IMG/VR virus record: IMGVR_UViG_3300045934_000076
Location: 1-63,135 of that record
Source: a virus
Lineage: Duplodnaviria; Caudoviricetes
Length of the DNA stretch: 63,135 nt
Strand: one strand, 5' to 3'
Shown here: in pieces, positions 2,975 through 56,394 of the stretch
Position numbering within the stretch: position 1 is the stretch's first letter
Layout of the letters: every line of letters starts with the position of its first letter
Translations under genes and position numbers: made by a program
Notes under the pieces: generated by a model
The model's database searches: none
Told to the model about the DNA's origin: nothing
Seen by the model: the letters and a program-made list of their open reading frames with translations, nothing else

Positions 2975-2975
2975 G

Positions 2976-3446: not shown

Positions 3447-3667
3447 CCCTCGTGAAGGAGGTCAAGCTTCTGGACGACGGCGGCAACTCGCTCACGTTCA
3501 CGCTGACCAACGAGGGCCGGCTCTACATCACGTCGGTCGTCTACGTGAACGGCCGCAAGACTGGCACTGGCCTCGCGAAGAAGTTCCTCGAGCAGCGGCA
3601 CGCTGAGACGTCACTCGAGAAGCAGGTCGCTGAGGCCCGCGAGCTGGGATGGGAGCTGCCGTCATGA
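3443..3667 (+). CDS. Hypothetical protein, possibly WGR-like fold; paralogue of 2552..2917
   Basis: ATGA overlap; shares L.D..G.SL, G[ST]G[IL]A and A[KR].LGW with gene 2552. Confidence 0.7.
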   Translation: MTLVKEVKLLDDGGNSLTFTLTNEGRLYITSVVYVNGRKTGTGLAKKFLEQRHAETSLEKQVAEARELGWELPS

Positions 3668-4584
3668 GGCCCGATCACATGGAACGTGCCATGACTCGGG
3701 GCTTCGTCGAGCCCATGCTGGCATCACCGACGAAGGAGGGCATGCTCCTCCCGTCAGGAGAGTGGATCGCCCAGGAGAAGTACGACGGGCATCGCCTGAT
3801 AGTAGCAGTAGGCAAGGCCAGTGGTCTCTTCGGCGGCGAGCCAAGAGCGTGGAGCCGCGACGCGAAGGACCGCATCCTGCCGGCTCACGTTCGCACAGCG
3901 ATCGGGAAGCTACCGAACGGCATCTACGACGGTGAGCTTCTGGTGCCAGGTGAGCGCTCGTACGGCGTCACCCGACTGGACCTCGCCGACAAGCTCGTGT
4001 TCGTGTGCTTCGACGTCTTGGAGCTCCTCGGAAAGGACCTCACGATCAGAGGCATCGGGGCCAATCAGCAAGATCGCAGAGACTACCTCTTGCAGATCTT
4101 CAATCAGCCCGAGCTGGGAGTGCCAGGGATTCAACTCGCGTGGCAGATGCCAATCAAGACATTCGAGGACGCTAACAGGATAGCCGCCAGGGATGTCTGG
4201 TCGCGCGACGGTGAAGGGCTCATTCTCAAGAGAGTGACGGGGCTCTATCAGCCCGGCAAGCGACCCAAGGACTGGCTCAAGATCAAGATGCTCAGGAGTG
4301 CCTGTCTCACGATCGTTGGCTTCAAGGCAGGCACGATGGGTGACAACTCAGTCGTCATGCTTCGGGACGATGACGGCAACGATACGACGGTCAAGTGGAA
4401 GAATCTCGAGATACTCCATCAGCTTCAGACCGATCCGAAGAGCTTCATCGGGCGCAAGCTCTGGATCGAGTTCCAAGAGAGAACGCCCGACGGCGGCTAT
4501 AGGCATCCTCGGTGGGATCACCTCGACGAGGGTCGCAACGCAGGCAAGCGCGTCCTCAGCGCGCTCAAAGGAGGCACGAAGTGA
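3664..4584 (+). CDS. ATP-dependent DNA ligase
   Basis: Motif I EKYDGHR, YDGEL, FDVL, EGLILK, WLKIK, C-terminal OB fold (YRHPRW). Confidence 0.93.
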   Translation: MRPDHMERAMTRGFVEPMLASPTKEGMLLPSGEWIAQEKYDGHRLIVAVGKASGLFGGEPRAWSRDAKDRILPAHVRTAIGKLPNGIYDGELLVPGERSYGVTRLDLADKLVFVCFDVLELLGKDLTIRGIGANQQDRRDYLLQIFNQPELGVPGIQLAWQMPIKTFEDANRIAARDVWSRDGEGLILKRVTGLYQPGKRPKDWLKIKMLRSACLTIVGFKAGTMGDNSVVMLRDDDGNDTTVKWKNLEILHQLQTDPKSFIGRKLWIEFQERTPDGGYRHPRWDHLDEGRNAGKRVLSALKGGTK

Positions 4585-19174: not shown

Positions 19175-19950
19175 AACGTCCTCTCGTCAGCATCGACCTC
19201 GAAACTACAGGCGAACATCCGGAGAAAGACCGGATCGTTCAGCTCGGTCTCGTGAAGCTCTATCCAGGTGGCAGAGAGACCGAGTACATGACCCTCGTGA
19301 ACCCAGGCATGTCAATCGCGCCTGAGATCAGCGAGATCCACGGCATCACAGACGAAGACGTCAAAGACGCTCCCTTCTTTGATTCAACTTACGTGGCGGG
19401 CTACCTCCAAGTCGGCCTTGTCGGTTGCGACGTGCTCGGCTACAACCTGAAGCGATTCGACCTTCGCATCATCAAGGAGGAGTTCCGTCGCTGTCGCAAG
19501 ATCTGCCCCGAGTGGATGGAGGTCATCGACGCTGGCCGGATCTTCCACATCAAGGATCCGCGTACACTCATCGCAGCGGCCAAGAAGTACCTGAACCGCG
19601 ACGTGGAGGAAGAAGCTCACGACGCGCTGTTTGATGCGAGGCTCACGAAGGATGTGCTCCTCGGTCAACTGGAGTTCTATCCTGAACTTCCGAGGAGCGT
19701 GCCTGAACTCGCTCGCTTCTGCGACGAGGGTAGGCCAGGAGGAAATTCCCTCGACCCTGAGGGCAAGTTCGCGTGGCGACACAATCGCTGCATCGTGAAC
19801 TTCGGGAACAAGCATCTGCTCGTTCCTCTTGAAGAAGTGGCACAGCGTGATCCTGGCTATCTCAAGTGGATGCTCAACGGCGACTTTAGTGACCAGGTGA
19901 AGGCCATCTGCACGCTGGCACTGAAAGGCGAGTTCCCGACCCGTGGCTAG
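19162..19950 (+). CDS. DEDDh 3'-5' exonuclease (DnaQ-like)
   Basis: IDLETTG, IHGIT, GYNLKRFD, AHDALFD; C-terminal FGNKH...DPGYLKW. Confidence 0.92.
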   Translation: MLNLERPLVSIDLETTGEHPEKDRIVQLGLVKLYPGGRETEYMTLVNPGMSIAPEISEIHGITDEDVKDAPFFDSTYVAGYLQVGLVGCDVLGYNLKRFDLRIIKEEFRRCRKICPEWMEVIDAGRIFHIKDPRTLIAAAKKYLNRDVEEEAHDALFDARLTKDVLLGQLEFYPELPRSVPELARFCDEGRPGGNSLDPEGKFAWRHNRCIVNFGNKHLLVPLEEVAQRDPGYLKWMLNGDFSDQVKAICTLALKGEFPTRG

Positions 19951-20191
19951 CTTCACGAAGGACGATCAAGTCGCTGTGCTCTTCGCTAACGGCAGAGAGA
20001 TCGTGCTTCAAGTGCGCGAGGTCACCGTCGAGTGTCACGAGTACGACTATCAAACGATCGAGCTCAGCGGCTTTATCGTCGCAGAGCATGTGAAGGCTGG
20101 CGCACCGGAGCTTGATCACAAGCGAACGATCTCGTCACAAGACTTTGTGAACGCGGCAAAGCGAGTCCTTCAGGATCTGAAGAATGGCTAG
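19943..20191 (+). CDS. Hypothetical protein, paralogue of 20184..20489
   Basis: Shared N-terminus, LSG.IV and DFV.AAKRVL. Confidence 0.7.
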   Translation: MASFTKDDQVAVLFANGREIVLQVREVTVECHEYDYQTIELSGFIVAEHVKAGAPELDHKRTISSQDFVNAAKRVLQDLKNG

Positions 20192-20489
20192 TTATCGCCG
20201 CGACGATCGGTATCCATTCGCTGTGATCTTTCTTGACGGAAAGATCATGGTTGTTCGAGTCGGTGACCTCAGTGTCGAAGATCGTTCTCACGATCACGAA
20301 TACGTCACTTATGATTCTCCGTATCCCATCGTCGTTCGTGGGATCAGAGATCATCGAGTGAATCTGTCGGGCCGCATCGTGGAGTACATCGACGATAGCG
20401 GAAGTCCTTTCTTGAAGAACGAGGGCCTCACTGAGAAGGACTTCGTAGACGCGGCGAAGAGAGTTCTGGAAGAGATCAAGAAGAAGTGA
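20184..20489 (+). CDS. Hypothetical protein, paralogue of 19943..20191
   Basis: Same shared motifs. Confidence 0.7.
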   Translation: MASYRRDDRYPFAVIFLDGKIMVVRVGDLSVEDRSHDHEYVTYDSPYPIVVRGIRDHRVNLSGRIVEYIDDSGSPFLKNEGLTEKDFVDAAKRVLEEIKKK

Positions 20490-20809
20490 GCTCTCCTGTA
20501 GACAAGTTCGGCTTCATTTGCAACGACGCAAGAATTGAAATCATCAAGCGACCCGATCTCGATGTCGTCGTGCTCCTCGATAGGCCCACTAACTTTCAGA
20601 TGAGCTACGATCGACGTAGATGGGATCTCAACGCAGAGGAGTGTGTCGAGGAGTTTCGACATCACGTTCAACGCAATTTCAACAATCGCTATCTGGACTT
20701 CAAAGAGCGATACGTCGACTTCAAGCCCAAGCCGAAACCTGATCCAGCCCCGATCAATCCGCGCCAAGCGGGGCTGCGCGTGCTGTCGGCGCTGAGGAGA
20801 AAGTCATGA
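20486..20809 (+). CDS. Hypothetical protein
   Basis: GTGA overlap; ends AGLRVLSALRRKS. Confidence 0.65.
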   Translation: MSSPVDKFGFICNDARIEIIKRPDLDVVVLLDRPTNFQMSYDRRRWDLNAEECVEEFRHHVQRNFNNRYLDFKERYVDFKPKPKPDPAPINPRQAGLRVLSALRRKS

Positions 20810-23593: not shown

Positions 23594-23601
23594 TCAGAGG
23601 A

Positions 23602-23630
23602 TTGCTCGCGTTGCTAACTTGTGCTATGCT
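23602..23630 (+). promoter_or_regulatory. Promoter with GTTGCTAAC box in spacer
   Basis: TTGCTC-17 bp (GCGTTGCTAACTTGTGC)-TATGCT. Confidence 0.75.
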
Positions 23631-29227: not shown

Positions 29228-30094
29228 GTGAGCGAGCACCCTCCAGACTGCGCTTGCCCCGACTGCGACTGGACCGATGTGAGTAAGGATCTTGGGATCG
29301 GGATCACTCCTGTCATCACGATCGACTCGGCTCCCTTCATGAATCAGCTCAAGCTGATCGCGAAGGAGTTCGATGGATGGAGGTTACTTGGTTTTGACCA
29401 TCCGTGCTCTGACCCTCCATCTCATCCTAACTGCCGATGTGTTCTAGTTCCTGTCGCCGATCCTCCAAAGCCGAATGAAGGACGCGAAGCTGGCCTGAAA
29501 GTCTTGGAGGGACTCGGCAAGCCCAGGACCGAGCCGATCAAGCTTCCAAGGATAGAGGCCGAGCTGAGCTGGCTCGTGAGCGACTATCCCTTCGATGACA
29601 TCTACATCCCCGATCCCGAGTTCTTCGTTCCTCAGATCCCTCCGCCTCCAATGGTTCGCCGATGCAAGCACTGCGGACAAGAACCAGGAACTGATCGCCA
29701 TCCCGACTGTCGCTCTAACCCTGATCGCGGAGCGGATGGAGCGAATCACGAGGATGTTGTCTCAGTGGACGCTGCCTCCATCATCGGCATGGATGTTGGA
29801 GAAGAGTCGAGCTTCTCCATCGGCATCAAGATCCCTCCTGGCATGGCTGAAGCTTTCAAGAAGATGGCTGACGTCGGCAAGGATCTTGGAGCCTCGTTTG
29901 ATGCGATGGCCGACGTCGGCAAGGATCTTGGAGCCTCGTTTGATGCGATGGCTGTCAAGATTGGAGAGATGGTGAGCGCACTCACAGGAAAGAACGCTCC
30001 GAAGACCTGGCCTCAAGTCTACAAGGAGCACAAGTACCTCAAGCGGATGGCGAGCAGACGCAAGCATCACGCTCACAGGAGACGCAAGCGATGA
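29228..30094 (+). CDS. Hypothetical mosaic protein with HPNCRC motif and internal repeat
   Basis: 288-aa ORF with GTGA overlap. Confidence 0.65.
   Translation: MSEHPPDCACPDCDWTDVSKDLGIGITPVITIDSAPFMNQLKLIAKEFDGWRLLGFDHPCSDPPSHPNCRCVLVPVADPPKPNEGREAGLKVLEGLGKPRTEPIKLPRIEAELSWLVSDYPFDDIYIPDPEFFVPQIPPPPMVRRCKHCGQEPGTDRHPDCRSNPDRGADGANHEDVVSVDAASIIGMDVGEESSFSIGIKIPPGMAEAFKKMADVGKDLGASFDAMADVGKDLGASFDAMAVKIGEMVSALTGKNAPKTWPQVYKEHKYLKRMASRRKHHAHRRRKR
29864..29953. repeat. 42-bp tandem repeat (MADVGKDLGASFDA x2)
   Basis: Two near-identical in-frame units. Confidence 0.92.
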
Positions 30095-31349: not shown

Positions 31350-32674
31350 GCGAAGAGCTCGAACTCGTAGAGCAGGAACTGGATCAGCTGGAGGAGTCCC
31401 TCTACATCGAGGAGCTCCAGCTCAAGTGGGAGCGTGGCCTCCCGAAGATCCTGCGTCCACTCCTCGAGCCCTCTCGGTACAAGGCCCTCCATGGCGGTCG
31501 TGGAGGGATGAAGTCCCACTTCTTCGCCGAGCTGATGATCCGTCGTGCGCGACGTCAGCCCGGCTTCAGAGGAGTGTGCATCCGCGAGGTGCAGAACTCT
31601 CTCGCAGAGTCTGTCAAGCGCCTCCTCGAGGACAAGATCAAGGAGTTCGGCCTCGGCAGTGAGTTCCGAATCCTGCAGAGCCACATCGAAACACTCAACG
31701 ACGGGATCATCATCTTCCGCGGAATGAAGGAGCAGACTGCGGAGAGCATCAAGTCGTTGGAGGGCTACGACGTGGCCTGGGTTGAAGAGGCTCAGACGTT
31801 CAGCGAGCGCTCTCTCACTCTGCTGCGGCCCACCATCCGTAAGGATGACAGTGAGCTCTGGTTCTCGTGGAACCCCAACGAGTCAACCGACCCTGTCGAC
31901 AAGTTCTTCCGTGAGGCGAATCCTCCCGACTGCATCATCATCGAGACGAGCTATCTCGACAACCCTCGGCTCCCTCAGGTCATGCTGCGTGAGGCCGAGT
32001 GGGATCGTCAGCGTGACGCCGATAAGTACGCGCATGTCTGGCTCGGCAAGTACAAGAAGATCAGTGAGCTGCGCGTCTTCCGAAACTGGAAGGTCGAAGC
32101 GATCGAGGCACCCATCGACATCCCTCGGTTGTTCGGTGGCGACTGGGGATTCAGCATCGATCCCACGGTTCTCATCTCAGGGTACATGCATCCTGAGCTG
32201 AAGCGCACGCTCGTCATCGACCATGAAGTCTACGAGGTCGGGTGTGAGATCGAAGACACTCCCGATCTGTGGGACGCGCTCTTCTGTGACGGCCTGTGCC
32301 CTGCGAAGAGGAGCGAGTGTGAGCGTCCCTCGCATGGCGCAGCGCGGCGATGGCCCATCATCGGTGACTCCGCGAGACCCGAGACCATCTCTCACATGCA
32401 ACGTCACGGGTACAAGAAGCTGGAGCCGTCGAAGAAGGGACCGAACTCCGTGGAGGAAGGAGTCATCTTCCTTCAGGGTCTCAACATCATCGTGCATCCG
32501 CGGTGCAGGCACGCGATCAACGAGCTTCAGTTCTACTCGTACAAGGCCGACCCTCTCACGGGCCGACCGACGGCGATACTCGCCGACAAGAAGAACCACG
32601 TCATCGACTCAGCGCGGTACATGCTCGAGCCGCTTCGCGCTGAAGTCAAGGCGAGCGGAGGTCTGCTTTGGTAG
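31346..32674 (+). CDS. terL: Terminase large subunit (PBSX-like); start probably the non-canonical CTG at 31346
   Basis: RYKALHGGRGGMKSH Walker A, WVEEA Walker B, SWNP, GGDWGFSIDP, NHVIDSARY. Confidence 0.93.
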   Translation: MSEELELVEQELDQLEESLYIEELQLKWERGLPKILRPLLEPSRYKALHGGRGGMKSHFFAELMIRRARRQPGFRGVCIREVQNSLAESVKRLLEDKIKEFGLGSEFRILQSHIETLNDGIIIFRGMKEQTAESIKSLEGYDVAWVEEAQTFSERSLTLLRPTIRKDDSELWFSWNPNESTDPVDKFFREANPPDCIIIETSYLDNPRLPQVMLREAEWDRQRDADKYAHVWLGKYKKISELRVFRNWKVEAIEAPIDIPRLFGGDWGFSIDPTVLISGYMHPELKRTLVIDHEVYEVGCEIEDTPDLWDALFCDGLCPAKRSECERPSHGAARRWPIIGDSARPETISHMQRHGYKKLEPSKKGPNSVEEGVIFLQGLNIIVHPRCRHAINELQFYSYKADPLTGRPTAILADKKNHVIDSARYMLEPLRAEVKASGGLLW

Positions 32675-35037
32675 CAGTCGTCCGTCAGTTGAGCGACTTC
32701 GTTCAGCGTGCAGGCCTCGCCCTCAAGGCGGGCATGACGTTCGGTGGGAAGCGGGATCTCTTCGCTGTGCTTGGGTACAAGCGCGAGCTGACTCCCGACG
32801 ACTATCGTGCACGATACGAGAGGAACGGAATCGCTGCTCGTGTAGTCGAGTCGCTCCCTCAGGCCACATGGAGGGGAGGTGCCGAGCTCATCGAGGATGA
32901 GGACCCGGACGTCAGCACCGACTTCGAACAGATCTGGGAGGACTTGGACAAGAGGCTCGGCATCTGGTCCACGTTCTCGAAGGCCGATGTCCTCGCTGGC
33001 CTCGGTCAGTTCTCCATCATCCTGATCGGTGCGCCGGGCAAGCTCGAGACTCCTCTGCCGTCAAGCATGACCGCAGAGCAGCTCATCTATCTCACGCCGT
33101 TCGCACAGGACGACGTCGACATCGTGTCTTACGTTGAGGACGAAGCCGACCCTCGCTTCGGTCTGCCCGCTGCATACATGATCAAGCGGCTCACGTCAGC
33201 AAAGGGTTCGGTTCGTGCGAAGAAGGTCGATGCGTCACGTGTGCTCCACATCGCCGACGGCGTTCTCGACGATCGCGTGTTCGGCACTCCTCGGCTCTCT
33301 CGCGTCTGGAACTGGCTCGACGACTTGGAGAAAGTGACTGGCGCAGGGAGCGAGTCGTTCTGGCTGCGAGCGCATCAGGGCTTCCACTTCGACCTCGATA
33401 AGGACCTGGTCATGTCCGAGCCGGACGTGAAGAAGGTCCAGGATGCAGCAGAGGAGTTCGCGCATCAGCTGCGAAGGACCATCGCCACTCGTGGCATGAA
33501 GATGGAGGCCTTCGGCAGCGACGTTGCGAACTTCAACAATCAGGTCGACGCCATCATCACGCTGATCGCAGGGGCCACGGGGATTCCGAAGCGCATCCTG
33601 GTCGGGAGTGAGCGGGGCGAGCTCGCCTCCACGCAGGACAAGACGAACTGGGATGAGAGGGTCAGCGATCGACGGCAGGACTTCGCGGAGCCGAGCATCG
33701 TTCGGCCCTTCGTCGAGATGCTCCAGTCGGTGGGTGTCCTTCCCGAGGTTGAGGAGTGGAATGTCCGCTGGCCCGAGATGATTCAGATGGACGAGGCTCA
33801 GCGCGCGGACATCGCGACGAAGTGGGCCGACCTCAACGCGAAGGCCGGTGAGCTGGTCGTTAAGGGATCCGAGATTCGTGACCACGTTCTGGGTCTTGAG
33901 CCGCTCACCAATGAGGACTTGGCTGAGTTTGAGGCCGACCATCAGCCCGTCGACGAGGTTCCTCCCGATCAGCCTCCTGCTGACGAGACTCAGGTTGACG
34001 TCGTTGACCCCGACGCTGAGGACCCCGAGACTCAGCCTGCCGCAGCCGCGCGACGTGTGCTCGCGTCCATCAGCAAGGGACGTACGGCCATCAAGCCGAG
34101 TCCCGAGCGTCGCATCCAGAAGGTCGCCGACGATGCGCGTGGGCGGTTCGCGGCGATCATCGAGAAGGCAACTCGCAAGGCCGGCGAGATCCTGTCCACG
34201 AGCGCTCTCACGAACGGCCTCGAGAGCAGGACGGAGAGCGAGGTTCTCAAGATCGCCGACCGTGCCATGGAGCAGTTCGAGCACGTCTTGCGTGAGCAGC
34301 TCATGGAGTCGTTGCTCGACATCGTGGACTCGTCAGGCACGTCACTCTCCAAGATCGGCATTCGCGTTGCTCAGGGCAAGATTCGCACAGCGAAGGACAC
34401 CGTCAGGACGTCCTTCAAGAAGAGCAACCCTCGCGCGCGGCAGTGGGCTGCGCAGCGAAGCTCGCGTCTGGTCACCGATGTCACCAAGACCACGCGTGAG
34501 GCGATCAGGAAAGTCATCGCTCGCTCCTTCGAGAAGCAGTTCACAGTCGGTGAGTCAGCTCGCTTGATTCGCAACGTCGTGGGCCTCACCGAGCGCGACG
34601 CTCAGGCTGTGCTGCGTCTGCGTGAGACCCTCGCCGAATCGCCGGGCCAGCTCGTTCGCGCAGGCAACACTCGCATCAGAGTCCCGGAGGATCCGTCGCA
34701 GGACTTCCTCGAGTCCAAGACGGAAGCTTACGCCGACAGGCTCCTTCGTGCTCGTTCCGAGACCATCGCGAGAACCGAGACGATGGCCGCGTCGAACGAG
34801 GGTCAGCGTGAGCTCTGGCTCCAGGCTCAAGACGAGGGACTGCTTCCGCGCAACATCGTTCGCAAGTGGATCATCACCGACGACGACAGGCTCGATGAGG
34901 CCATCTGTGCTGAGATGGAGGGCGAGACCGCCGAGCTCGACGAGCCCTTCGTGCTCCCCGATGGCACCGAGGTGATGGGTCCACCTGCCCATCCCAATTG
35001 CCGATGCACACAGGGCCTCGCGCAGGGGAGGGACTGA
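32668..35037 (+). CDS. Portal protein (DUF1073-like) fused to a MuF/SPP1 gp7-like minor head domain
   Basis: YERNGIAARVV, ATGIPKRILVGSERGELASTQD; C-terminal RSETIARTET...KW...PPAHPNCRC. Confidence 0.85.
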   Translation: MVAVVRQLSDFVQRAGLALKAGMTFGGKRDLFAVLGYKRELTPDDYRARYERNGIAARVVESLPQATWRGGAELIEDEDPDVSTDFEQIWEDLDKRLGIWSTFSKADVLAGLGQFSIILIGAPGKLETPLPSSMTAEQLIYLTPFAQDDVDIVSYVEDEADPRFGLPAAYMIKRLTSAKGSVRAKKVDASRVLHIADGVLDDRVFGTPRLSRVWNWLDDLEKVTGAGSESFWLRAHQGFHFDLDKDLVMSEPDVKKVQDAAEEFAHQLRRTIATRGMKMEAFGSDVANFNNQVDAIITLIAGATGIPKRILVGSERGELASTQDKTNWDERVSDRRQDFAEPSIVRPFVEMLQSVGVLPEVEEWNVRWPEMIQMDEAQRADIATKWADLNAKAGELVVKGSEIRDHVLGLEPLTNEDLAEFEADHQPVDEVPPDQPPADETQVDVVDPDAEDPETQPAAAARRVLASISKGRTAIKPSPERRIQKVADDARGRFAAIIEKATRKAGEILSTSALTNGLESRTESEVLKIADRAMEQFEHVLREQLMESLLDIVDSSGTSLSKIGIRVAQGKIRTAKDTVRTSFKKSNPRARQWAAQRSSRLVTDVTKTTREAIRKVIARSFEKQFTVGESARLIRNVVGLTERDAQAVLRLRETLAESPGQLVRAGNTRIRVPEDPSQDFLESKTEAYADRLLRARSETIARTETMAASNEGQRELWLQAQDEGLLPRNIVRKWIITDDDRLDEAICAEMEGETAELDEPFVLPDGTEVMGPPAHPNCRCTQGLAQGRD

Positions 35038-36566
35038 TGGGTCAGCTGGCTCGGCACGTTCACCTCATGGCCGCGACGGGCACGATCCGCACAGCCGTCT
35101 TCGAGGAGCGTGAGCACATCGTCATCCCCGTGGTCGCGCTTGTCGAGGGCGTGATTTGGCCCATCAACGCGGAGACGCCGGAACTCGTGCTCGCGGAAGA
35201 GCTCGCGAAGGCTCCCGCTGGATGGGATGGCCGGCCCGTGATGCTGGATCATCCCTCGTTCGGGGACACGAGGGTGAGCGCCAATCACCCCGACGTTCTC
35301 GAGAGTGGCATGATGGGTCGGTTGTTCAACACCCACATGGAGCACAAGAAGCTGGTGACGGAAGCCTGGATCGATCCGCTGCGCTCCAAGAAGGTGGGAG
35401 CTGAGCAGATGGTCGAGGACATCCGCAACAGCCAAGAGATGATCGAGGTCAGCGTCGGCGCCTTCATCATCCCGGAGAAGAAGTCGGGCATCCACTTGGG
35501 CCAGCGATTCGACTCGATCTGGAGGGAGATCGTTCCGGACCATCTGGCCTTCCTTCCCAAGGGGAAGATCGGCGCGTGCTCGAACGAGATGGGATGTGGA
35601 GCTCCTCGAGCAGCGACGGTGCACGTCTTCATCGGTGGCAAGTATCTCACCCTCAGCGGTTCGGAGGAGAAGATGTCGAAGGACACAAAGCGTCCGTGGC
35701 GTGAGAAGTTCGCGGCGCTGTTCTCGTCGTTCCGTGGAGCGGAAGACGAGGGGCTCGGGGACATGGACCTGCGGGCCAAGCTCGAGGAGTCTCTGCGAGC
35801 CACCGAGCCCGGCTTTCTCGGTGTCGACATGGTGTTCCCCGAGGCGTCGAACGTCATCTACGCGGTCGCGCCCAAGGACACCGTTCAGCTGTTCCAGCGC
35901 TCGTTCTCGGTGAACAGCGAGGGAGTCGTGAGCCTCGGCGAGGAGAAGGTCGAGGTCAAGCCCGTCACTCGGTTCGAGCCGGTCACGGCAGCCGAGGAAG
36001 ATCCGTGCAAGTGCAAGAAGGAGGAAGAGGAAGCGATGGCGACCAAGAAGGAGTGGGTCCAGAAGATCCTGGCCCGAAAGAACCCGCGGTTCGCGGCGTC
36101 GGACGCTTCGATCCTCGAGCAGCTCTCCGACGAGCGCCTGAAGGCCCTCGCCGAGGAGCCCGAGCCCGAGGAGAAGAAGGAGCCCCCGACTCCGCCTCCG
36201 CCGCCCGAGGACAAGGTGAAGGACCCTCTCGAGGGCATCACCGAGGAGCAGGTCCTCGCCAAGTTCCCCGGCCTGAAGAAGGTCGTGGAAGACGAGCAGA
36301 AGCGCGCGGCCGAGCGTCGCAAGACCCTGGTCGCCGCGATGGCCAAGCAGAAGGTCTACACCGAGGACGAGCTCAAGGCCATGCCTCTCGAGCAGCTCGA
36401 GAAGGTCGTGCAGTTCGCGTCGGCGAGCGGCGCGGCCGAGTCGGTCGACGAGTCCGGTCGCGGCCTGCCGCGCTCGGCGGCGGCGAAGGAGGGCGAGGTG
36501 CCCGAGCCGCCGAACATGCACAAGGTCATCCGGGACTCGCGTCTCGGGGCCGGCAAGACGGCCTGA
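35037..36566 (+). CDS. DUF2213-like head maturation protease/scaffold
   Basis: WDGRPVMLDHP, IEVSVG, PDHLAFLP..IGACS...GCG; charged C-terminal scaffold region. Confidence 0.8.
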   Translation: MGQLARHVHLMAATGTIRTAVFEEREHIVIPVVALVEGVIWPINAETPELVLAEELAKAPAGWDGRPVMLDHPSFGDTRVSANHPDVLESGMMGRLFNTHMEHKKLVTEAWIDPLRSKKVGAEQMVEDIRNSQEMIEVSVGAFIIPEKKSGIHLGQRFDSIWREIVPDHLAFLPKGKIGACSNEMGCGAPRAATVHVFIGGKYLTLSGSEEKMSKDTKRPWREKFAALFSSFRGAEDEGLGDMDLRAKLEESLRATEPGFLGVDMVFPEASNVIYAVAPKDTVQLFQRSFSVNSEGVVSLGEEKVEVKPVTRFEPVTAAEEDPCKCKKEEEEAMATKKEWVQKILARKNPRFAASDASILEQLSDERLKALAEEPEPEEKKEPPTPPPPPEDKVKDPLEGITEEQVLAKFPGLKKVVEDEQKRAAERRKTLVAAMAKQKVYTEDELKAMPLEQLEKVVQFASASGAAESVDESGRGLPRSAAAKEGEVPEPPNMHKVIRDSRLGAGKTA

Positions 36567-37078: not shown

Positions 37079-38089
37079 ATGAGCAGAGCAGAAGGCGCGT
37101 CGCTCGACACGGGCAAGTCGATCCTGAGCACGGGTCGCTGGGCCGGCGAGCGGCTGCTGGCGGCGCTGAAGGAGGGACGCAAGATCTCTCCGAAGGAGCT
37201 GAGGACCGCGGACACTCTCCAGAAGGACGAGTGGATCGCGCTCGACACCGCCCTCATCGAAGAGGGCAAGATCCGTCTGCGCGGGATCGCCGACCTCATC
37301 GCGGCCGGGCTCACCATCCCGGTCACGAACGCGATGGGCAAGACGATCTTCCAGTGGGAGCGCGTCACCGACATGGATCCGGCCGACGTCAGCATGAGCG
37401 GCCGGTCGAGGTCGGAGGACGACCGGGTCGAGTACGACCTGGGCAGCCTCCCTCTCCCGATCACGCACAAGGACTTCAACCTGGATCTGCGCACTCTGTC
37501 CGCGTCGCGTGAGCGGGGCGAGTCGCTCGACGACACGCAGGCCCGCATCGCGGGTCGCCTCGTGTCCGAGAAGCTCGAGGAGATGCTGTTCAAGGGAGGC
37601 AAGACCTTCCTGGGCTCCACGATCTACGGGCTCACGAACCATCCCAACCGGAACACCGCTTCCTACGGCACGGGCGGCGCGTGGACCGGCTCGAAGACCG
37701 GCGACCAGATCATCGCCGACGTGCTCACCATGAAGGCCGGCCTGGAGGGCGACCGGATGTTCGGTCCCTACTGGCTCTACGTCAGCGCGAACTCCAGCAC
37801 GAAGGTCGAGGAGGACCTCAAGGCCGCGTCCGACAAGAGCATCCGTCAGCGCATCCTGGAGGTCGACGGCATCCAGGCCGTGCGCGTGGTCGACCAGATG
37901 CCCGCGAGCACCGTCGTCATGGTGCAGGCCACCCGCGACGTCGTCGCGCTGGTCGACGGCGAGCCGCTGCAGACCGTCCAGTGGGACGTCGAGGGTGGCT
38001 TCTTCGTGAAGTTCAAGGCGTTCACGATCCAGGTGCCGCTCATCCGCGCGGACGCCCAGGGTCGCTCGGGCGTCTTCCACATGAGCTAG
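37079..38089 (+). CDS. Major capsid protein (HK97 fold, encapsulin/Linocin-M18-like)
   Basis: LQKDEWIALD, PLPITHKDF.LDLR.L.ASR, YGLTNHP, FGPYWLYV; strong codon bias. Confidence 0.88.
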   Translation: MSRAEGASLDTGKSILSTGRWAGERLLAALKEGRKISPKELRTADTLQKDEWIALDTALIEEGKIRLRGIADLIAAGLTIPVTNAMGKTIFQWERVTDMDPADVSMSGRSRSEDDRVEYDLGSLPLPITHKDFNLDLRTLSASRERGESLDDTQARIAGRLVSEKLEEMLFKGGKTFLGSTIYGLTNHPNRNTASYGTGGAWTGSKTGDQIIADVLTMKAGLEGDRMFGPYWLYVSANSSTKVEEDLKAASDKSIRQRILEVDGIQAVRVVDQMPASTVVMVQATRDVVALVDGEPLQTVQWDVEGGFFVKFKAFTIQVPLIRADAQGRSGVFHMS

Positions 38090-48497: not shown

Positions 48498-48856
48498 GGC
48501 GGGGCAGCGCGTTTCGATTCGCGCATCGCCTCGCCTTGAATCTTGGGGTTCCGGATGTCGACGGGATGCTGCGGTCGATGAGACCGCAGCAGCTCATCGA
48601 TTGGATGGTGTTCGAGGAGCTTGAGCCATTCGGGGACCAAAAGATGGCGGACATGTTCGGGTCGGTCGTGCAAGTAATCGCGAACGTCAACCGTGACAAG
48701 AAGAAGCGGCCGCAGATCTATGAGCTCGAGGACTGCAAGCTCTACTTCGGAGATGCGGAGAAGCCCAAGCCAAAGGTCATGCCGTGGCAGCAGATGAAGG
48801 CTTACGCTCAAGCCATCGCCGAGTCGCATAACGCGAGAATCAGAGGAGCTGCCTAG
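48488..48856 (+). CDS. Tail assembly chaperone frameshift extension (gpT-like)
   Basis: -1 frame relative to gpG; WMVFEELEPFG motif. Confidence 0.75.
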   Translation, partial: KRLRRGSAFRFAHRLALNLGVPDVDGMLRSMRPQQLIDWMVFEELEPFGDQKMADMFGSVVQVIANVNRDKKKRPQIYELEDCKLYFGDAEKPKPKVMPWQQMKAYAQAIAESHNARIRGAA

Positions 48857-51604: not shown

Positions 51605-53281
51605 ATGGCTCTGCCGAAGATCTTCCGTACGAATCTGGTGACGGTGGCAGGAGCTCTGCTCACTCCGTCATCGGAAGAACCGGGCATGACCAGAGAGGCT
51701 CTCTTCCGGATCGGTGTGACCGACGCCATCCAGTGGCTCTTCGGATACGATGTTCGCACAGGAGAGAACGACCGAATCGACTTCAATCGTGGCGGCGTCA
51801 AGGTCGCTACGATCGCTCAAGCTCACTATGCGACGTTCTCGGCCTACGCCACGGCTGTCGTAGCAGCGATGAATGCTGCCGATGCTCAGGCGTGGAGCGT
51901 GACCAGGAGTGTTACGACAGGCATCGTGAGCTTCAGCGCAGGAGTATCGTTCAGTCTCCTGTTCAACACGGGAGCGAACTTCGCCAGATCGGCTCACAGG
52001 GACCTCGGGTTCTTGGACATCGATCGGGCCTCTTCTGCGCTTCACGTCAGCAACAAAGCTTCGTGGCAGAGCCGTCGTTCAATCAACCTTGACGCTGGCC
52101 TCACGGCGACACTCGACGAGTTCGTGATCACTTCCGGCTTCAACGACAAGCTGGACGTTGGAAGCTATCGAGCCGGCATCACGTCGTCTTCGGTTGCAAA
52201 TCCAACAACCATCACGACTTCGTCTCCACATAACCTGACGAACGGTGATCGGGTCAGGATCAGTGATCACACGGGCAGCACTCCCGATATCAACGGTTCG
52301 TGGATCGCTACGGTGACAGGGGCCAGCACATTCACCATCCCCGTCAACGTCACCGTGGGTGGATCGAACGGAGCAGTCTACAAGCACATCTCGATCACGA
52401 TCCCTGCCGATACTTACTCCGGGTCAACGCTCGCTGCGAAAGCGGCAGAACTGCTGGCGACTGCTGATCCAACGATGGGCTGGATGGTCGAGTTCGGTAG
52501 CAACATCTTCGGATTCGCGACTCCTGGCCTGACTCCTCATGTGCTGTTGACTGGCACGGGTGTGAACGTAGCGACGTCAACATGGGGTACGATGGGCTTC
52601 TTCACAGGTTCGGATTCAACTGCGTTCACCTCACACAGCTCCGACTTCGAGGTCTCAGGATCAGCTCTGCCAAATGCGAATTTCGGGTACATTCTCGGGC
52701 ATGATCTGTCCGAGCAGGGGACTGCGAAGCTTCAGGGGAGTGCTTCCACTTTGGTCGGCGTAGGTCTGCTCGCAACGACTCCTTCGCTCAACGTCACGCT
52801 TGACCCGGATCCTAGCGAGAGATCCGATATCCGTCTCAAGGAGTTCAACCAAGTAGGATTTAGATTCTGGCGTTTGATCTTGGAAGACGTCCAGAACGAC
52901 GCAGGATTTCTGTCACTCGGGAAGTGGTTCGTTGGCAATGGTCAGTTCCTCACGGGTATCGCGATGGGTGTATCCGATACCCGCGATGAGTTGACCACCA
53001 TCGCGTATGCTGTGGAAGGAGCCCATTCGGCTGTCGATCGTGAGACGCGTCGAGTACTGAGCGTGACCATCCATCGCATCACAGATGCTGACAAGCTCGT
53101 GCTCGAGAGCTTCGCCAAGGAAGTCAAGATCGGTGGGCCGTTCCTGTTCGTTCAGGATTCCAACGACATCTACTCCGGGCGATACGTCTTCATGAACGAG
53201 GGGTTCAGCTTCGAGACTGTCGAGGACTCAAGACCCGTCCTCTGGGAAGCCAGCGTCTCTCTTCTTGAGGTGATCGGCTGA
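51605..53281 (+). CDS. Distal tail-like protein with inserted beta modules
   Basis: Follows tape measure; FRFWRL...LGKWFVG; E1-FCCH-like module. Confidence 0.7.
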   Translation: MALPKIFRTNLVTVAGALLTPSSEEPGMTREALFRIGVTDAIQWLFGYDVRTGENDRIDFNRGGVKVATIAQAHYATFSAYATAVVAAMNAADAQAWSVTRSVTTGIVSFSAGVSFSLLFNTGANFARSAHRDLGFLDIDRASSALHVSNKASWQSRRSINLDAGLTATLDEFVITSGFNDKLDVGSYRAGITSSSVANPTTITTSSPHNLTNGDRVRISDHTGSTPDINGSWIATVTGASTFTIPVNVTVGGSNGAVYKHISITIPADTYSGSTLAAKAAELLATADPTMGWMVEFGSNIFGFATPGLTPHVLLTGTGVNVATSTWGTMGFFTGSDSTAFTSHSSDFEVSGSALPNANFGYILGHDLSEQGTAKLQGSASTLVGVGLLATTPSLNVTLDPDPSERSDIRLKEFNQVGFRFWRLILEDVQNDAGFLSLGKWFVGNGQFLTGIAMGVSDTRDELTTIAYAVEGAHSAVDRETRRVLSVTIHRITDADKLVLESFAKEVKIGGPFLFVQDSNDIYSGRYVFMNEGFSFETVEDSRPVLWEASVSLLEVIG

Positions 53282-56200
53282 TGCCGTCGGCTTCCGACAA
53301 CAAGATCGGCTTCGGCCGCACAGGCCTCCTCGGAAACCTCCGTACTCATGGGGATTTCCAGCGTGACAATCGTGCTCGACGTCAGGGATACGTTGATCTC
53401 GTGCTTGGGAAGGCCATCACCAAGACTGGGACTTACTTGGGATCAATCAGGTACACAGACCTCAGTGTTGATTCTGCGTTGACCTGGGCGGGCGCAATAC
53501 GACCGATCGTTGGCATGGAGGCGATGAGGACACCGCGAGCGTTGTCTTTTGCGGAGAGTCTTGCCTCCATGGCGGCTGGAACATTCTTCTACGATGAGAC
53601 CCAGATGGTCAAGGGCGGGACTTTGACCGTCTATTGGTGGCTTCCTGACAGTTCCAATCCTTCAACGTCCGAGGAGTTCGTCATCCACTTGATGTTCAAC
53701 ATTGGCACTCGTGGTGAGCGGCATCCTCTGTTTCTCCCCGAGCGCTTCGTCGATGGAGGGTTCGCCTACTGGACAAGCCCCACGGTCCCGAAGTTCTGGA
53801 CTCCTTCCGGAGTGGCCGCATCGGGAGTCAGGCTTGATCAGGATACCGATGCTGCCCCGTCATCCAAGGATCCCTACTCGCTCAAGATTTCACCGGGAGC
53901 AAGTGGACTTCCCAACGCCTCTGACGGTGGAGTACTCATCGATGGTGCTACGTCACCTCCGGGATTCAACAACGGAAATCTCGGAGCTGGTCGTGAGACG
54001 TGGTACACGTTCTACTACAAGACTGATCCGGACATGCCAGTCGGTGTCTTCCCAGCGATTCGTGTAAGAGCCGGATCTGGTCAGTTCATGAACGCGGACG
54101 GAGAGTCGTTTTCTGTGCCTCCGAACAACGTCCCACTTCCACTCACGAATGGACAGTGGCGGCGTTGCATCTTTGTATTCCGGAATCCGTCTGACACGAC
54201 GAGCTTGTCGATTCATCTTCGGCTCAGGAACGACAGTGGAGGGACGGTCACCACGGGATGGGTGAAGTACGACGGGGCCAGTCTGAGAACAGTTCTGCGA
54301 CGAGTGTACTACCAGCCAGGATTGGAGATCGATTCGTTGCCAGTCCTTGAGCTCAAGTCTCAGTCGGTCGCGTTCGGTGCTAAGACCATCGGCCAGGGCA
54401 AGGTCTCCATTCTCGATGGCAATCGTGCTCTGACAAAAGCGTTCGCGAGTTTGCTGCCTCTTCGAAAGCCTGTTAAGATCTCAGTCGGAGGAGCATTCTC
54501 TAACAAAGAGTTCCTTCGCCGCGACGATTGGCGAACAGCGTTCTTGGGCTTGTCACAGACGCCGCTCTTCAAGACCCAGGAAGGCCGCATCGTGATCGAC
54601 CTTGAGGACTCCAGGACCATCACGAGATCGCGTGTCTTGGAGAAGGCCTATCGCATTGCGGACTTGTCCGGACTTGATCGGGAGGCTGAGGGCACTCCGA
54701 AGAACTATGTCTTTGGCGACACGATCGAGCAGGCTTTCAAGTACACGCGCGTCGGGGTGAACTCGAACGGTTATGGTCTGTACGAGGCTCTCGATCCTGC
54801 CGTGCCTGTGGCTGACAATGTCAACGTTGGACTTCCGACAGGATACTCCGCCATCATCTTCCCTAACGAAGAGATGGCCGACAAGAACGTCAACGGCTAC
54901 GACCTGTCCAACACGATCACTGGCAACACGGCTGCCAATCCCACTGCTGTCACGACGTCGAAGCGGCATGGCCTCGCGACGAATGACTTCGTCACCATCT
55001 CTGGGAGCAACTCTACACCGAACATCAACGGTCGTCGGCAGGTCACAGTCACGAGTGACTTCACGTTCACGGTCGCTGTCAATGTGTCTGTCGCCGGAAC
55101 TACAGGCAAAGTAGTCTCACACGCCGACTACGACTACTCGTTGAACAACACGCGATGGGAGATCAAGCGGGATTTGCACAACATGGCCTTCGACAAGCAA
55201 GGCCAGGAGATTGGTCTCGGGTGTCGTTTCTACTACATGAACGAGACTTACCTAAACCCGACCTTCGTCGATCTGGATTTGTCGGGTCCACCGTGGAAGG
55301 TCGCTCTCGATCTTCAAGCTGCCATCCGTGCCAACGACGCAGACAACAACACGAGCGTAGTCTACGCTGAGAACACTCACAAGATCACGGTGTCCAGGAC
55401 CGGTGGCAAGGGAGTCTTCATCGACCTCTACTCGGTCTCATCCGTCGCACTTCCAAACATCGACAGCGTGAGCATGCGGAGCTGGGAGCTCCTCGGGTAT
55501 GACGTCAGGGGAGATCACGGCGGTGGAGCGACTACGTCGTGGACCGCTGAGAAGCCTCTGTTCACCGATGTTGACAAGGACCACATCATTCGGTGGTTCG
55601 TTGGCGGATACTACGATGATTCGTTGGGAAGCATCTGTGGCGTCGCAAACGCGGCCATCGACAATCCTCCAGCGATCTACTCGTGGCTCTGGCAGAAGCA
55701 TCTGCGGCAGTCGCCTTCGACCATCAATGTGAACTCCTTCGCTGACGCCAGGAACCTCAGCTTCAGCGGTGACTTCGTCCAGATGCTCATGGTCTTGTTG
55801 AACCAAGACGACGATGTGTTCAAGGCTTTCGGGCTGCTCGACCAGATGGGTCTGATGGACACGGTCTTGGATGGCGACGGCGTGCTCCAGTGCCGGAAGC
55901 ACAGCGACTCTGCGCCAGTCGTCCGGGTCCTGCGTGATCGGGACTATCAGTCCTTCGAGATGCGCTATGACCCCAAGATCCTGTTCAGGGAAGTCCGTGT
56001 CTGGGGCAGCTATCGCCAATCGCTGCAGAAGTTCGAGACCTATCTTGACTCACCAGCTTTCACCGATGCGGCTGCGCCGATCAAGACCGGGGCCACGGAC
56101 ATCTTCAATCTGTACGGATACCTCTCGCGAGCCTCCATCACAGGAGGCCTGTGCCTGCTCCCGAACTACTACGCTCGGCTCTTCAAGAAGGTCCCGAGGA

Positions 56201-56394
56201 TCGTTCAACTGTCAACAGTAGGACAGCTCATCGACACGTTCATCGGCGACAAGATCAGCCTCTACGCGAGCAAGGCTCTGTCACCGACGGGCACGCTCAG
56301 CGGTGAGGTGTTCAGGATCTTCAACCTCACTCACGACTACCTCACAGGCATGACGACCTGCGAGGCGGTCGAGAACGTTCAAATCCTGACATGA
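53281..56394 (+). CDS. Large tail tip / baseplate hub protein
   Basis: 1037 aa; carbohydrate-binding-like segment (DGGF..WT...WVKYDGASL); E1-FCCH-like module. Confidence 0.7.
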   Translation: MPSASDNKIGFGRTGLLGNLRTHGDFQRDNRARRQGYVDLVLGKAITKTGTYLGSIRYTDLSVDSALTWAGAIRPIVGMEAMRTPRALSFAESLASMAAGTFFYDETQMVKGGTLTVYWWLPDSSNPSTSEEFVIHLMFNIGTRGERHPLFLPERFVDGGFAYWTSPTVPKFWTPSGVAASGVRLDQDTDAAPSSKDPYSLKISPGASGLPNASDGGVLIDGATSPPGFNNGNLGAGRETWYTFYYKTDPDMPVGVFPAIRVRAGSGQFMNADGESFSVPPNNVPLPLTNGQWRRCIFVFRNPSDTTSLSIHLRLRNDSGGTVTTGWVKYDGASLRTVLRRVYYQPGLEIDSLPVLELKSQSVAFGAKTIGQGKVSILDGNRALTKAFASLLPLRKPVKISVGGAFSNKEFLRRDDWRTAFLGLSQTPLFKTQEGRIVIDLEDSRTITRSRVLEKAYRIADLSGLDREAEGTPKNYVFGDTIEQAFKYTRVGVNSNGYGLYEALDPAVPVADNVNVGLPTGYSAIIFPNEEMADKNVNGYDLSNTITGNTAANPTAVTTSKRHGLATNDFVTISGSNSTPNINGRRQVTVTSDFTFTVAVNVSVAGTTGKVVSHADYDYSLNNTRWEIKRDLHNMAFDKQGQEIGLGCRFYYMNETYLNPTFVDLDLSGPPWKVALDLQAAIRANDADNNTSVVYAENTHKITVSRTGGKGVFIDLYSVSSVALPNIDSVSMRSWELLGYDVRGDHGGGATTSWTAEKPLFTDVDKDHIIRWFVGGYYDDSLGSICGVANAAIDNPPAIYSWLWQKHLRQSPSTINVNSFADARNLSFSGDFVQMLMVLLNQDDDVFKAFGLLDQMGLMDTVLDGDGVLQCRKHSDSAPVVRVLRDRDYQSFEMRYDPKILFREVRVWGSYRQSLQKFETYLDSPAFTDAAAPIKTGATDIFNLYGYLSRASITGGLCLLPNYYARLFKKVPRIVQLSTVGQLIDTFIGDKISLYASKALSPTGTLSGEVFRIFNLTHDYLTGMTTCEAVENVQILT

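Follow-up and report, generated by a model that had tools for sequence, protein, structure and literature searches.

A short peptide on otherwise unrelated proteins of an uncultured tailed phage: a probable address tag and its candidate partners

Carriers of the shared peptide

The DNA analysed here, referred to as the window, is a stretch of 63,135 bases from one uncultured tailed phage. Its six-frame translation was searched for a short peptide, A-[AG]-x-[RK]-V-L-x-x-[LI] (the strict pattern), which a first-pass annotation had noticed in several of the encoded proteins. The copies and their look-alikes are found at the following sites:

4531..4584, + strand: C-terminal tail GRNAGKRVLSALKGGTK of the ATP-dependent DNA ligase (gene 3649..4584, PF01068), with the strict motif from 4540
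16677..16709, + strand: weaker copy QARRVLDVLSG in ORF 16575..16790 (or 16491..16790), ahead of a Gly/Ser-rich stretch
20150..20191, + strand: C-terminal tail NAAKRVLQDLKNG of orphan ORF 19943..20191, a paralogue of 20184..20489; strict motif
20448..20489, + strand: C-terminal tail DAAKRVLEEIKKK of orphan ORF 20184..20489; strict motif
20765..20809, + strand: C-terminal tail QAGLRVLSALRRKS of orphan ORF 20486..20809, preceded by the linker KPKPKPDPAPINPR; strict motif
29486..29524, + strand: internal copy EAGLKVLEGLGKP in ORF 29228..30094; strict motif
34042..34080, + strand: copy AAARRVLASISKG in the acidic, Pro-rich linker encoded by the fused portal-MuF gene 32668..35037; strict motif
37136..37177, + strand: look-alike RWAGERLLAALKEG, residues 20-33 of the major capsid protein (37079..38089), a member of the motif-blind cluster described below

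All seven peptides quoted in that annotation were found in their places. ORF 16575..16790 is located just downstream of the gene for a 5-hmdU DNA kinase, and the three small orphan ORFs are placed between the genes for an RNase_T-type exonuclease and an SNF2 helicase. ORF 19943..20191 has no homologue in seven related phage genomes; 20184..20489 falls into a cluster of its own among 5.8 billion proteins and yielded no match in a protein search against cultured phages, and 20486..20809 has no family match in Pfam, PHROGs or NCBIfam. In ORF 29228..30094, the motif has a Cys-rich HPNCRC segment on one side and, on the other, a region with tape-measure-like repeats and a strongly basic end. This ORF matches PhageMin_Tail weakly (E 0.021, below the cut-off) and has no true homologue among 1.84 billion representatives, where it retrieved itself and two repeat-only matches. 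One assembly starts the gene inside the motif at a TTG codon, and on six contigs the gene is called with 271 aa, the motif included; the cluster members of four carriers differ in their start codon only. The fused gene 32668..35037 encodes a Phage_portal_3 domain (residues 46-388) and a Phage_Mu_F domain (residues 693-781). The peptide had been attributed to the MuF domain itself, which needs correction, as it sits in the linker between portal and MuF, outside the latter domain. A capsid-like stretch, AGEGLMGQL, at the start of 34998..36566 was discarded as probably untranslated, since translation more likely begins from the ATG at 35037, in overlap with the upstream stop codon.

The strict pattern matches six times in the six-frame translation of the window, in each case on the plus strand and inside a named ORF, and not once in the other frames or on the minus strand. 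The annotation had called for a comparison with shuffled controls. In a crude set of 91 ORFs (19,955 residues), 0.027 matches are expected analytically as compared to the six observed, and 20,000 within-protein shuffles contained no match in 19,452 cases, one in 544 and two in 4, but never more than two. In agreement with the description of the motif as mostly C-terminal, four of the six strict copies end 14 residues or fewer from the C-terminus. By hand arithmetic, ~3.8% of all positions lie that near a C-end, and the probability of this placement is ~3e-5 for four of six copies, or 5e-4 for three of five when the paralogues are merged.

Because the strict pattern was written after its instances had been seen, a motif-blind test was added, which links pairs of 10-mers from different proteins that have at least 7 of 10 residues identical. 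The largest cluster obtained in this way comprises five proteins, namely the ligase, the products of 19943..20191, 20184..20489 and 20486..20809, and the capsid protein. Across 300 shuffles, no cluster reached four members, the maximum being two (225 times) or three (75 times). The test adds a carrier to those listed before, that is the capsid protein with its N-terminal helix WAGERLLAALKEG. Most third codon positions of the motif copies differ, placing conservation at the protein level, as the annotation had proposed; for the same reason, a DNA-level repeat or a gene-end cassette was rejected.

The annotation had also counted two carriers as paralogues, and 19943..20191 and 20184..20489 are indeed related (34% identity, E 2e-14). 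The relation of 20486..20809 to this pair is not clear (E 0.058, with a faint N-terminal likeness), leaving five independent strict cases, or four at worst. This relatedness would suit a scenario in which the peptide has no common function at all and reflects paralogy of the small ORFs combined with a chance likeness of ordinary structural helices. A sequence such as AAxRVLxxL is plausible as an ordinary helix, and most carriers lack relatives in which conservation could be assessed. We consider such a coincidence highly improbable, since even with all three small ORFs merged, four independent strict cases face an expectation of 0.027, the motif-blind cluster is larger than in all 300 shuffles and the wrong frames of the window contain no match.

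The copies conform to a consensus of ~10 residues, [NDQE]-A-[AG]-[KLR]-[RK]-V-L-x-x-[LI]-[KR]. Read as a helix, the sequences place A(-4), A/G(-3), V(0), L(+1) and L/I(+4) on one side, flanked by basic residues. The motif is predicted to be helical on account of this periodicity and of the capsid copy, which falls into helix 20-31 of the modelled protein. Its sites are four C-terminal tails and two Pro-rich or acidic linkers, and in a relative, G006, also an N-terminus; the earlier remark that the motif occupies termini or Pro-rich, disordered linkers matches the carriers' sequences. The motif is real, operates at the protein level, occupies termini or linkers and is peculiar to the phage under study. 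Occurrence of the same peptide on at least six otherwise unrelated proteins, together with the look-alike at the start of the capsid protein, indicates that this ten-residue, predictedly helical peptide is probably an address tag.

Two details of the small carriers and tails may be added. In the four C-terminal tails, the codons of the last 2-5 residues coincide with the ribosome-binding site and start codon of the following gene, and the basic or Gly end of the tails may be partly shaped by this overlap; the A..RVL..L core is located further upstream. In the two paralogues, the motif helix comes after DFV and might be no more than an element of the fold.

The ligase tail and the N-terminal helix of the capsid protein

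Whether ligase homologues lack the tail was a further question raised by the annotation. They do: the tail is absent in 119 of 119 homologues, whose ends read ...RHPRWDRWEDE. In the structural model, the tail extends as coil beyond a well-folded core, with pLDDT values of 59 falling to 43, and thus appears as a clear add-on, that is a floppy appendage. This, too, speaks against a chance likeness of ordinary helices.

The capsid protein had been called encapsulin-like, a view upheld by a Pfam match to Linocin_M18 (E 9e-7) and by structural comparison. The model of the protein (pLDDT 86.9) aligns with 9i8e_A (Z 26.7, rmsd 2.5 over 276 residues) and 7s2t_A (Z 24.1), whole Family 1 encapsulin chains aligning to residues 36-336 only. 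Judged by this model, the protein has a Family 1 encapsulin fold with an N-terminal helix; it is all the same the capsid protein of a phage, its gene being flanked by portal, protease, decoration and tail genes. The helix resembling the tag (residues 20-31, pLDDT ~86) is modelled as packed onto the protein and represents, on the same evidence, an N-terminal extension outside the encapsulin-like fold. It is visible in the 119 homologues listed, and among 44 homologues G19, W21 and A22 are invariant and E24 is nearly so.

The ligase tail and the capsid helix have seven of ten residues in common. Moreover, the ligase tail is the best non-capsid match in the proteome for a profile of the capsid N-termini of other phages (P = 0.018, 500 shuffles). 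There are also systematic differences: in the tags, W21 is replaced by polar residues, E24 by K, L or R, and L26 by V in all six strict copies. When a 10-column capsid profile was used, the tag sites did not come out on top (P 0.12). In view of these differences and of the latter value, the capsid link rests on the ligase-capsid pair and a P of ~0.02. A role of the motif in loading cargo into the capsid had been offered as one option by the annotation, and this idea now gains support from the conserved look-alike in the capsid protein's own N-terminal extension.

Occurrence in related phages

In ~1.6 Mb of related phage DNA, no carrier was detected except for capsid N-termini and one N-terminal copy in G006, the closest of seven relatives (32 of 91 ORFs in common) and the only one of them with tag-like copies outside the capsid protein. 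The positional counterpart of ORF 16575..16790 in G006 begins GTG-SAAKKLLDALKGRQPAPG, which puts the motif at the extreme N-terminus (residue 2), behind a GAGGAGG ribosome-binding site and followed by a Pro-rich linker. The fusion of portal and MuF is likewise found in G006, with KAAARNLKSM at the same place. The two are separate genes in most relatives, clearly so in G004, G005 and G007, and in G002 MuF is in another frame, after a longer portal ORF.

When 80 related loci (1,095,422 bases) were searched in six frames, the strict pattern matched four times, three times on the strand opposite to the capsid gene and once in an Arg/His/Trp-rich ORF of ~170 codons; a loose pattern gave 24 matches, seven of which were capsid N-termini. 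No tagged protein was seen within 10 kb of the capsid gene in related phages (80 + 20 loci), and any loading system would therefore be nearly private to the studied phage and G006. The motif-blind test revealed no comparable tag in the seven relatives, some of the 30 shuffles per genome reaching clusters of 4-5; the clusters observed were a paralogous WTTPRTW N-terminus (G005, G006) and a repeat (G002). Cultured phages gave no DNA match to the window. A search with the portal protein yielded 394 records, none of which reached 60% identity or 80% coverage of the query; in a metagenome scan the nearest capsid relatives (71-73% identity) were on short contigs only, and NCBIfam added no annotation. 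Conservation of the tag on the same carriers was not found in related phages, where these proteins either have no counterpart or come without the tail. By sequence, the tag appears nearly private to the studied phage. Apart from the capsid N-termini, the G006 copies and the four strict matches mentioned above, no tag-like site was present in 198 kb, 1.10 Mb and 0.13 Mb of related DNA, which is a further argument against a motif devoid of function.

The G006 copies bear on a possible role of the tag as substrate or adaptor tag for a MoxR-type AAA+ ATPase (58527..59768) and its DUF7192 partner (59777..60658). Among the seven relatives, this gene pair occurs in G006 only (62% and 49% identity), that is in the sole relative with tag-like copies outside the capsid, and AAA+ machines often engage terminal peptides. 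However, as G006 is the closest relative overall, this co-occurrence amounts to one data point, and the capsid helix is conserved in many phages without the gene pair. We regard engagement by this ATPase as very unlikely.

The separate portal and MuF genes of most relatives can likewise be read in another way, since a fused form might need cutting. Accordingly, the motif could be a recognition or cleavage site of the head maturation protease (DUF2213 domain of 34998..36566), whose action would shorten the capsid protein at its N-terminus, separate MuF from the portal and cleave the product of 29228..30094. Three carriers are head-associated, and their sites are in linkers, where cutting would part domains. 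On the other hand, removal of 10-15 end residues from the ligase and small cytoplasmic proteins would be senseless unless these were already in the head, and the capsid helix is modelled as packed. Within the text returned by a full-text literature search for DUF2213, no work on cleavage specificity was found. Cleavage at the motif thus seems very improbable to us.

Docking partners and comparison with known systems

We tentatively favour the possibility that the tag is a portable amphipathic docking helix whose common partner is the procapsid interior, the tagged proteins probably being loaded into the procapsid; we hold this to be quite possible, albeit short of likely. According to this model, a helix of ~10 residues would be put at C-termini and inter-domain linkers, and in G006 at an N-terminus, to serve as docking peptide for one common partner. 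The latter might be the encapsulin-like capsid protein, its conserved N-terminal helix, or an assembly core contacting this helix. In this way, tagged proteins would become part of the head, with the MuF domain and the tape-measure-like product of 29228..30094 held at or near the portal; the ligase and the three small orphan proteins might also be loaded and delivered with the DNA. Docking as such is favoured by an enrichment far above chance, both by the written pattern and by the motif-blind cluster, and by copies at C-terminal tails, in linkers and at the G006 N-terminus, a placement typical of a docking peptide. A link to the capsid is suggested by three head or probable virion carriers (the capsid protein, portal-MuF and, on account of weak tape-measure-like repeats, 29228..30094), by the conserved capsid look-alike and its location outside the Family 1 encapsulin fold, and by the profile match to the ligase tail. 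Against the capsid as partner, five of the eight carriers belong to DNA-metabolism modules and not to the head genes; these are the ligase, the trio of small ORFs and the ORF that follows the 5-hmdU kinase.

This distribution favours a DNA-replication or -modification hub as docking site, such as the family A polymerase, the primase-polymerase/VapE helicase or the SNF2 helicase. The tag would then bring a DNA-hypermodification protein to the fork, along with the ligase and small accessory proteins; its presence on head proteins would be coincidental or serve another use. Tagging of the G006 counterpart of the post-kinase ORF fits this idea, and docking of ligases and other enzymes to replisome hubs by terminal peptides is common. 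Short terminal peptides that dock several unrelated enzymes, including ligases, to one hub are exemplified by the SSB C-terminal tail, the acidic tails of T7 gp2.5 and helicase, and clamp-binding motifs. In contrast to these acidic or aromatic tails, the tag is basic and aliphatic and is also carried by portal-MuF and the capsid protein. The strict pattern in the portal-MuF linker and in 29228..30094 is difficult to reconcile with a hub, as two further chance matches are very unlikely at 0.027 expected per proteome; the same holds for membership of the capsid protein in the motif-blind cluster. Furthermore, neither a clamp nor an SSB could be recognised in the window. Clamp-binding motifs follow the consensus Q-x-x-[LIM]-x-x-[FY]-[FY] (PIP box) or Q-L-[SD]-L-F (beta-clamp pentapeptide), whereas no copy of the tag has an aromatic residue after V-L, and the peptides lack the aromatic residues of such motifs altogether. 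Recruitment to a replication hub is unlikely in our view; if it occurs, the tag would constitute a new hub-docking motif.

Two further options concern the helix itself. All copies have the same narrow hydrophobic face with Ala/Gly at -4/-3, and these small residues would allow close packing of like helices. The carriers could then assemble by pairing with each other, with no untagged partner involved, and E in the capsid helix versus K, L or R in the tags would suit hetero-pairing. A helix of 10 residues is nevertheless short for a stable coiled coil and shows no heptad continuation, and pairing of this kind appears decidedly improbable. Alternatively, the motif might be a membrane-targeting amphipathic helix that holds replication and assembly proteins at the membrane, like the C-termini of MinD and FtsA. 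In line with this, the copies are short, terminal, amphipathic and basic and follow flexible linkers. Conservation (A, R/K, V and L invariant) is, however, far tighter than required for membrane helices, aromatic residues are absent, two copies have acidic residues on the helix (EEIKKK, QDLKNG), and the capsid copy is modelled as packed onto the capsid protein. Membrane targeting is therefore most improbable.

Docking at the procapsid interior would have counterparts in several known systems. Encapsulin targeting peptides are described as mostly C-terminal and sometimes N-terminal, binding to a pocket partly formed by the N-terminal helix of the shell, and those of Family 1 follow the consensus SDGSLGIGSLKRS with a GSL..GSL core (PMC8346489). 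Like these cargo peptides, the tag is short, follows flexible linkers and occurs on unrelated proteins: it occupies four C-terminal tails, the G006 N-terminus and two Pro-rich linkers, and the ligase tail is modelled as disordered. In addition, the shell is of the same fold here and possesses the N-terminal helix which, in encapsulins, contributes to the peptide pocket. Unlike encapsulin peptides, the tag is predicted to be helical rather than extended, none of the eight peptides contains the GSLxIGSL core of SDGSLGIGSLKRS, and the resemblance is to the extra N-terminal helix of the shell protein and not to a known cargo peptide. Its carriers are also scattered over the phage genome rather than encoded beside the shell gene.

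The scaffold of phage 80alpha and CpmB of SaPI1 are reported to have a common C-terminal helix-and-hook, an 11-residue amphipathic helix with a short basic end, which binds the N-arm helix of the capsid protein inside the procapsid (PMC5644958). The four C-terminal tails studied here similarly appear to combine an amphipathic helix with a short basic end on unrelated proteins. In contrast to 80alpha and CpmB, the RIIK hook is absent from the tag, there are six to eight carriers, and some copies are internal or N-terminal. Homologues of the protease-scaffold protein have a conserved C-terminal tail, which in a few cases reads ...ARVLEHRKKSA or ...ARVLASRQ. When 42 distinct tails from relatives were combined into a profile (consensus PP[SD][LM]xx[RA][IV][RKL]xx[RA]), no tag site was among its best 12 matches in the window proteome, which were headed by 53281..56394, 56391..56705 and 48536..48856; mimicry of the scaffold tail was dropped on this ground.

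In T4, a capsid targeting sequence, that is a short conserved peptide on diverse internal proteins (IPI-III, Alt), is described to direct these into the scaffolding core for co-delivery with the DNA (PMC3012670). The tag is likewise one conserved short peptide on diverse proteins. In T4, the peptide stands at the N-terminus as a leader and is cut off by the prohead protease. Unlike this leader, the tag is mostly C-terminal or internal and unrelated in sequence. No copy in the window forms an N-terminal leader of ~10 residues as in T4; such a position is seen only in the G006 post-kinase ORF (residue 2).

A bolder version of procapsid loading, which we consider doubtful, starts from a capsid that is almost an encapsulin. 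A helical tag imitating the capsid's own N-terminal helix would load the ligase, the three small orphan proteins (possible anti-defence effectors), the DNA-modification protein and the tape-measure-like protein into the head for injection together with the hypermodified genome. If encapsulin-like cargo loading is true, it would naturally connect phage capsids with the way in which encapsulins take up their cargo, and the ligase would be the first packaged one of a phage, as we know of no other.

Short address tags for HK97-fold shells are known from T4, encapsulins and the 80alpha/SaPI1 pair; to our knowledge, few natural examples exist in ordinary siphophages. The tag studied here can stand at either protein end or in a linker, marks both DNA-metabolism enzymes and head proteins, and is similar to an additional, conserved helix of the encapsulin-like capsid protein. 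Should it be a loading signal, it would offer a 10-residue handle for putting foreign proteins into phage heads, and the set of virion-delivered proteins could be identified from sequence alone, among them orphans with a possible role as anti-defence factors.

Gene content and the shared peptide

The window is an entire virus record of 63,135 bases (GC ~60%; estimated completeness 88%), in which all genes as read lie on the + strand. No DNA match was found among cultured phages, and the best match of its portal among these is 38% identical. Family searches revealed genes of DNA metabolism (ATP-dependent DNA ligase, family A polymerase, primase-polymerase/VapE protein, SNF2 helicase, RNase_T-type exonuclease) and, at 9901-18543 and 23009-24795, a full thymidine-hypermodification set: 5-hmdU DNA kinase, thymidylate-synthase-like, radical SAM/SPASM, TAGT-like glycosyltransferase, Pam3 gp33-/gp34-like and DUF3310 nucleotide-kinase-like genes. 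Judging from its genes, the phage DNA is probably hypermodified. Inside this cluster, two neighbouring ORFs at 12392-14225, 310 and 299 residues long, are paralogous (34% identity, E 4e-49) and were assigned to no family. The head-to-tail module comprises the large terminase, a portal-MuF fusion, a DUF2213 head maturation protease whose C-terminal half is long and acidic, a decoration protein, a DUF6260/Linocin-like capsid protein, lambda-like tail tube and chaperones, and the tape measure.

Carriers of the tag in the window (all + strand)
3649..4584: DNA ligase, strict
19943..20191: small ORF, strict
20184..20489: small ORF, strict
20486..20809: small ORF, strict; tag after KPKPKPDPAPINPR
29228..30094: ORF, strict; tag flanked by DPPKPNEGR and GKPRTEP
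32668..35037: portal-MuF fusion, strict; tag preceded by an acidic, Pro-rich linker of 40 residues
37079..38089: capsid protein, look-alike
16575..16790 or 16491..16790: ORF, weaker copy QARRVLDVLSGRQLPRGG

Seven peptides named in the first-pass annotation were all found where it had placed them. The strict pattern A[AG].[RK]VL..[LI] matches six times in the six-frame translation, each time in frame with a + strand ORF. In the comparison with shuffled controls proposed earlier, the motif stands above background, with 0.027 matches expected in the 91-ORF set (19,955 residues) versus six observed; 20,000 within-protein shuffles gave no match in 19,452 cases, one in 544 and two in 4. Since the strict pattern was written post hoc, we added a motif-blind test, in which 10-mers of different proteins were linked if at least 7 of 10 residues were common. 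Here, the tag formed the largest cluster of the proteome, uniting the ligase, the capsid protein and the three small ORFs, five proteins in all; among 300 shuffles, the top cluster had 2 members in 225 cases and 3 in 75. The observation of a shared peptide is confirmed and extended.

As previously claimed, conservation resides at the protein level: codons differ between copies, so the tag is not a DNA repeat, and such a repeat was rejected as the source of similarity. The two carriers 19943..20191 and 20184..20489 are indeed paralogous, and 20486..20809 has at most faint kinship to them. That chance plus paralogy explains the tag is highly improbable, as merging all three small ORFs still leaves four independent strict copies against 0.027 expected.

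The consensus reads [NDQE]-A-[AG]-[KLR]-[RK]-V-L-x-x-[LI]-[KR], in which A(-4), A/G(-3), V(0), L(+1) and L/I(+4) would form a single narrow hydrophobic helix face with basic residues at its edges. That the tag helices pair mutually is unlikely, and that the tag is a membrane helix seems far-fetched. Four copies lie at C-termini, where 2-5 residues come after the helix. The codons for the extreme ends of these tails are shared with the ribosome-binding site and start codon of the next gene, which may account in part for their basic or Gly make-up.

The ligase tail and the capsid helix

The tag is an appendage of the ligase: in the structural model pLDDT exceeds 90 in the core and drops over the last 17 residues to 59, then 43. 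The tail is absent from 119 of 119 ligase homologues among the matches listed (45-61% identical), which stop at a conserved ...RHPRWDRWEDE. This acidic end is common to nearly all phage ligases of the family (P0002-P0120, the listed homologues) and could serve as a docking tail in its own right. The window's ligase (3649-4584) has the family end altered to ...RWDHLDEG, followed by the basic tag.

The capsid protein is a carrier beyond those noted before. Its residues 20-33, RWAGERLLAALKEG, have 7 of 10 residues in common with the ligase tail. The element is visible in 119 of 119 homologues listed (58-72% identity), takes the form xRLL in two distant ones and, across 44 aligned homologues, keeps G19, W21 and A22 invariant and E24 nearly so. 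In an AlphaFold model (pLDDT 86.9), residues 20-31 are helical (pLDDT ~86). Structurally, the model best matches Family 1 encapsulins (9i8e_A, Z 26.7; 7s2t_A, EncA with targeting peptide, Z 24.1); as their entire chains align to residues 36-336, the helix is predicted to be an extension outside the shell fold. With a 16-column profile made solely of capsid N-termini from other phages, the ligase tail was the best non-capsid match in the proteome (P = 0.018, 500 shuffles); with a 10-column profile the tag sites did not come out on top (P = 0.12). Relative to the capsid helix, the tag changes regularly (W to a polar residue; E to K, L or R; L to V). Kinship of the two is suggestive, not proven.

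Occurrence in related phages

Outside this phage, the tag is nearly absent. In the 198 kb of three distant relatives, no frame contained a strict or a loose match. A set of 80 loci surrounding related capsid genes (1.10 Mb) gave four strict matches, of which three fall on the opposite strand and the fourth in an unusual Arg-rich ORF, and 24 loose ones, 7 of them capsid N-termini. Twenty metagenome loci (0.13 Mb) yielded no strict match and three loose ones (two capsid N-termini, one in an unidentified ORF). No homologue of carriers 19943, 20184, 20486 or 29228 turned up in seven related genomes, and large protein collections contained no true homologue of 20184..20489 or 29228..30094.

The closest relative, G006, has 32 of the 91 window ORFs in common and carries tag-like sequences at three matching places.

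Tag-like sequences in G006
Capsid N-terminus: WAGEQLLKALKAG
Portal-MuF linker: KAAARNLKSM, fusion as in the window
ORF directly 3' of the 5-hmdU kinase: starts GTG-SAAKKLLDALKGRQPAPG, GAGGAGG site upstream; positional counterpart of the weaker copy

Therefore, the tag predates the window's phage, can be placed N-terminally and spread to more proteins in the window. The portal-MuF fusion (one 789-residue ORF, 32668-35037) is also present in G006; portal and MuF are separate genes in the relatives G004, G005 and G007. At 16491-17040, the weak-motif ORF ends Gly/Ser-rich and overlaps 16618..17040 by ~170 bases in a different frame; in G006 its counterpart forms one uninterrupted frame of 244 codons. 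There may be a frameshift here, whether genuine or due to misassembly. An N-terminus WTTPRTW.[AD]GE is common to several proteins of G006 (18347-19606, 23441-23896) and G005 (2765-3346, 65502-66718), probably paralogous N-terminal domains of tail-fibre type. Among the seven relatives, only G006 shares the gene pair at 58527-60658 (MoxR/CobS-like AAA+ ATPase and DUF7192 protein); that the tag addresses this pair is quite unlikely.

A putative docking helix

The docking tag proposed in the first-pass annotation is reasonable, and the data fit a portable, putative docking helix. We tentatively favour a candidate partner inside the procapsid, by analogy and from the identity of the carriers: three are proteins of the head or probably of the virion, and the capsid protein, an encapsulin-like shell, has a conserved look-alike on an extension. 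Between portal and MuF, the tag could keep MuF at the portal or recruit the assembly core there. Against a procapsid partner, five of the eight carriers lie in DNA-metabolism modules, we know of no packaged phage ligase, and the tag departs from both the encapsulin consensus and the family's scaffold tail. Docking to a replication hub is a less probable but conceivable alternative, and that the tag is a protease site is very unlikely.

As a kind, such a tag is known; its form is new, a helical, capsid-like peptide that sits in linkers or at either terminus and is carried by a ligase. Short terminal peptides load proteins into encapsulin shells (PMC8346489), the T4 capsid targeting sequence is another such loading peptide (PMC3012670), and the 80alpha scaffold and CpmB act through a helix-and-hook on the capsid N-arm helix (PMC5644958). 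However, the tag has no match to the encapsulin consensus and, unlike the 80alpha/CpmB-type tail, does not resemble its own family's scaffold tail, whose profile (42 distinct tails) did not match it in the window's proteome. That tail, at the C-terminus of the protease-scaffold (34998-36566) and its homologues in loci of relatives (L022-L141), consists of a Pro-rich linker, PP[SD][LM]xx[RA][IV][RKL]xx[RA] and a basic end, and is probably the scaffold's capsid-binding end. With the same profile, the C-ends of 48536..48856 and 56391..56705 outscored most shuffles.
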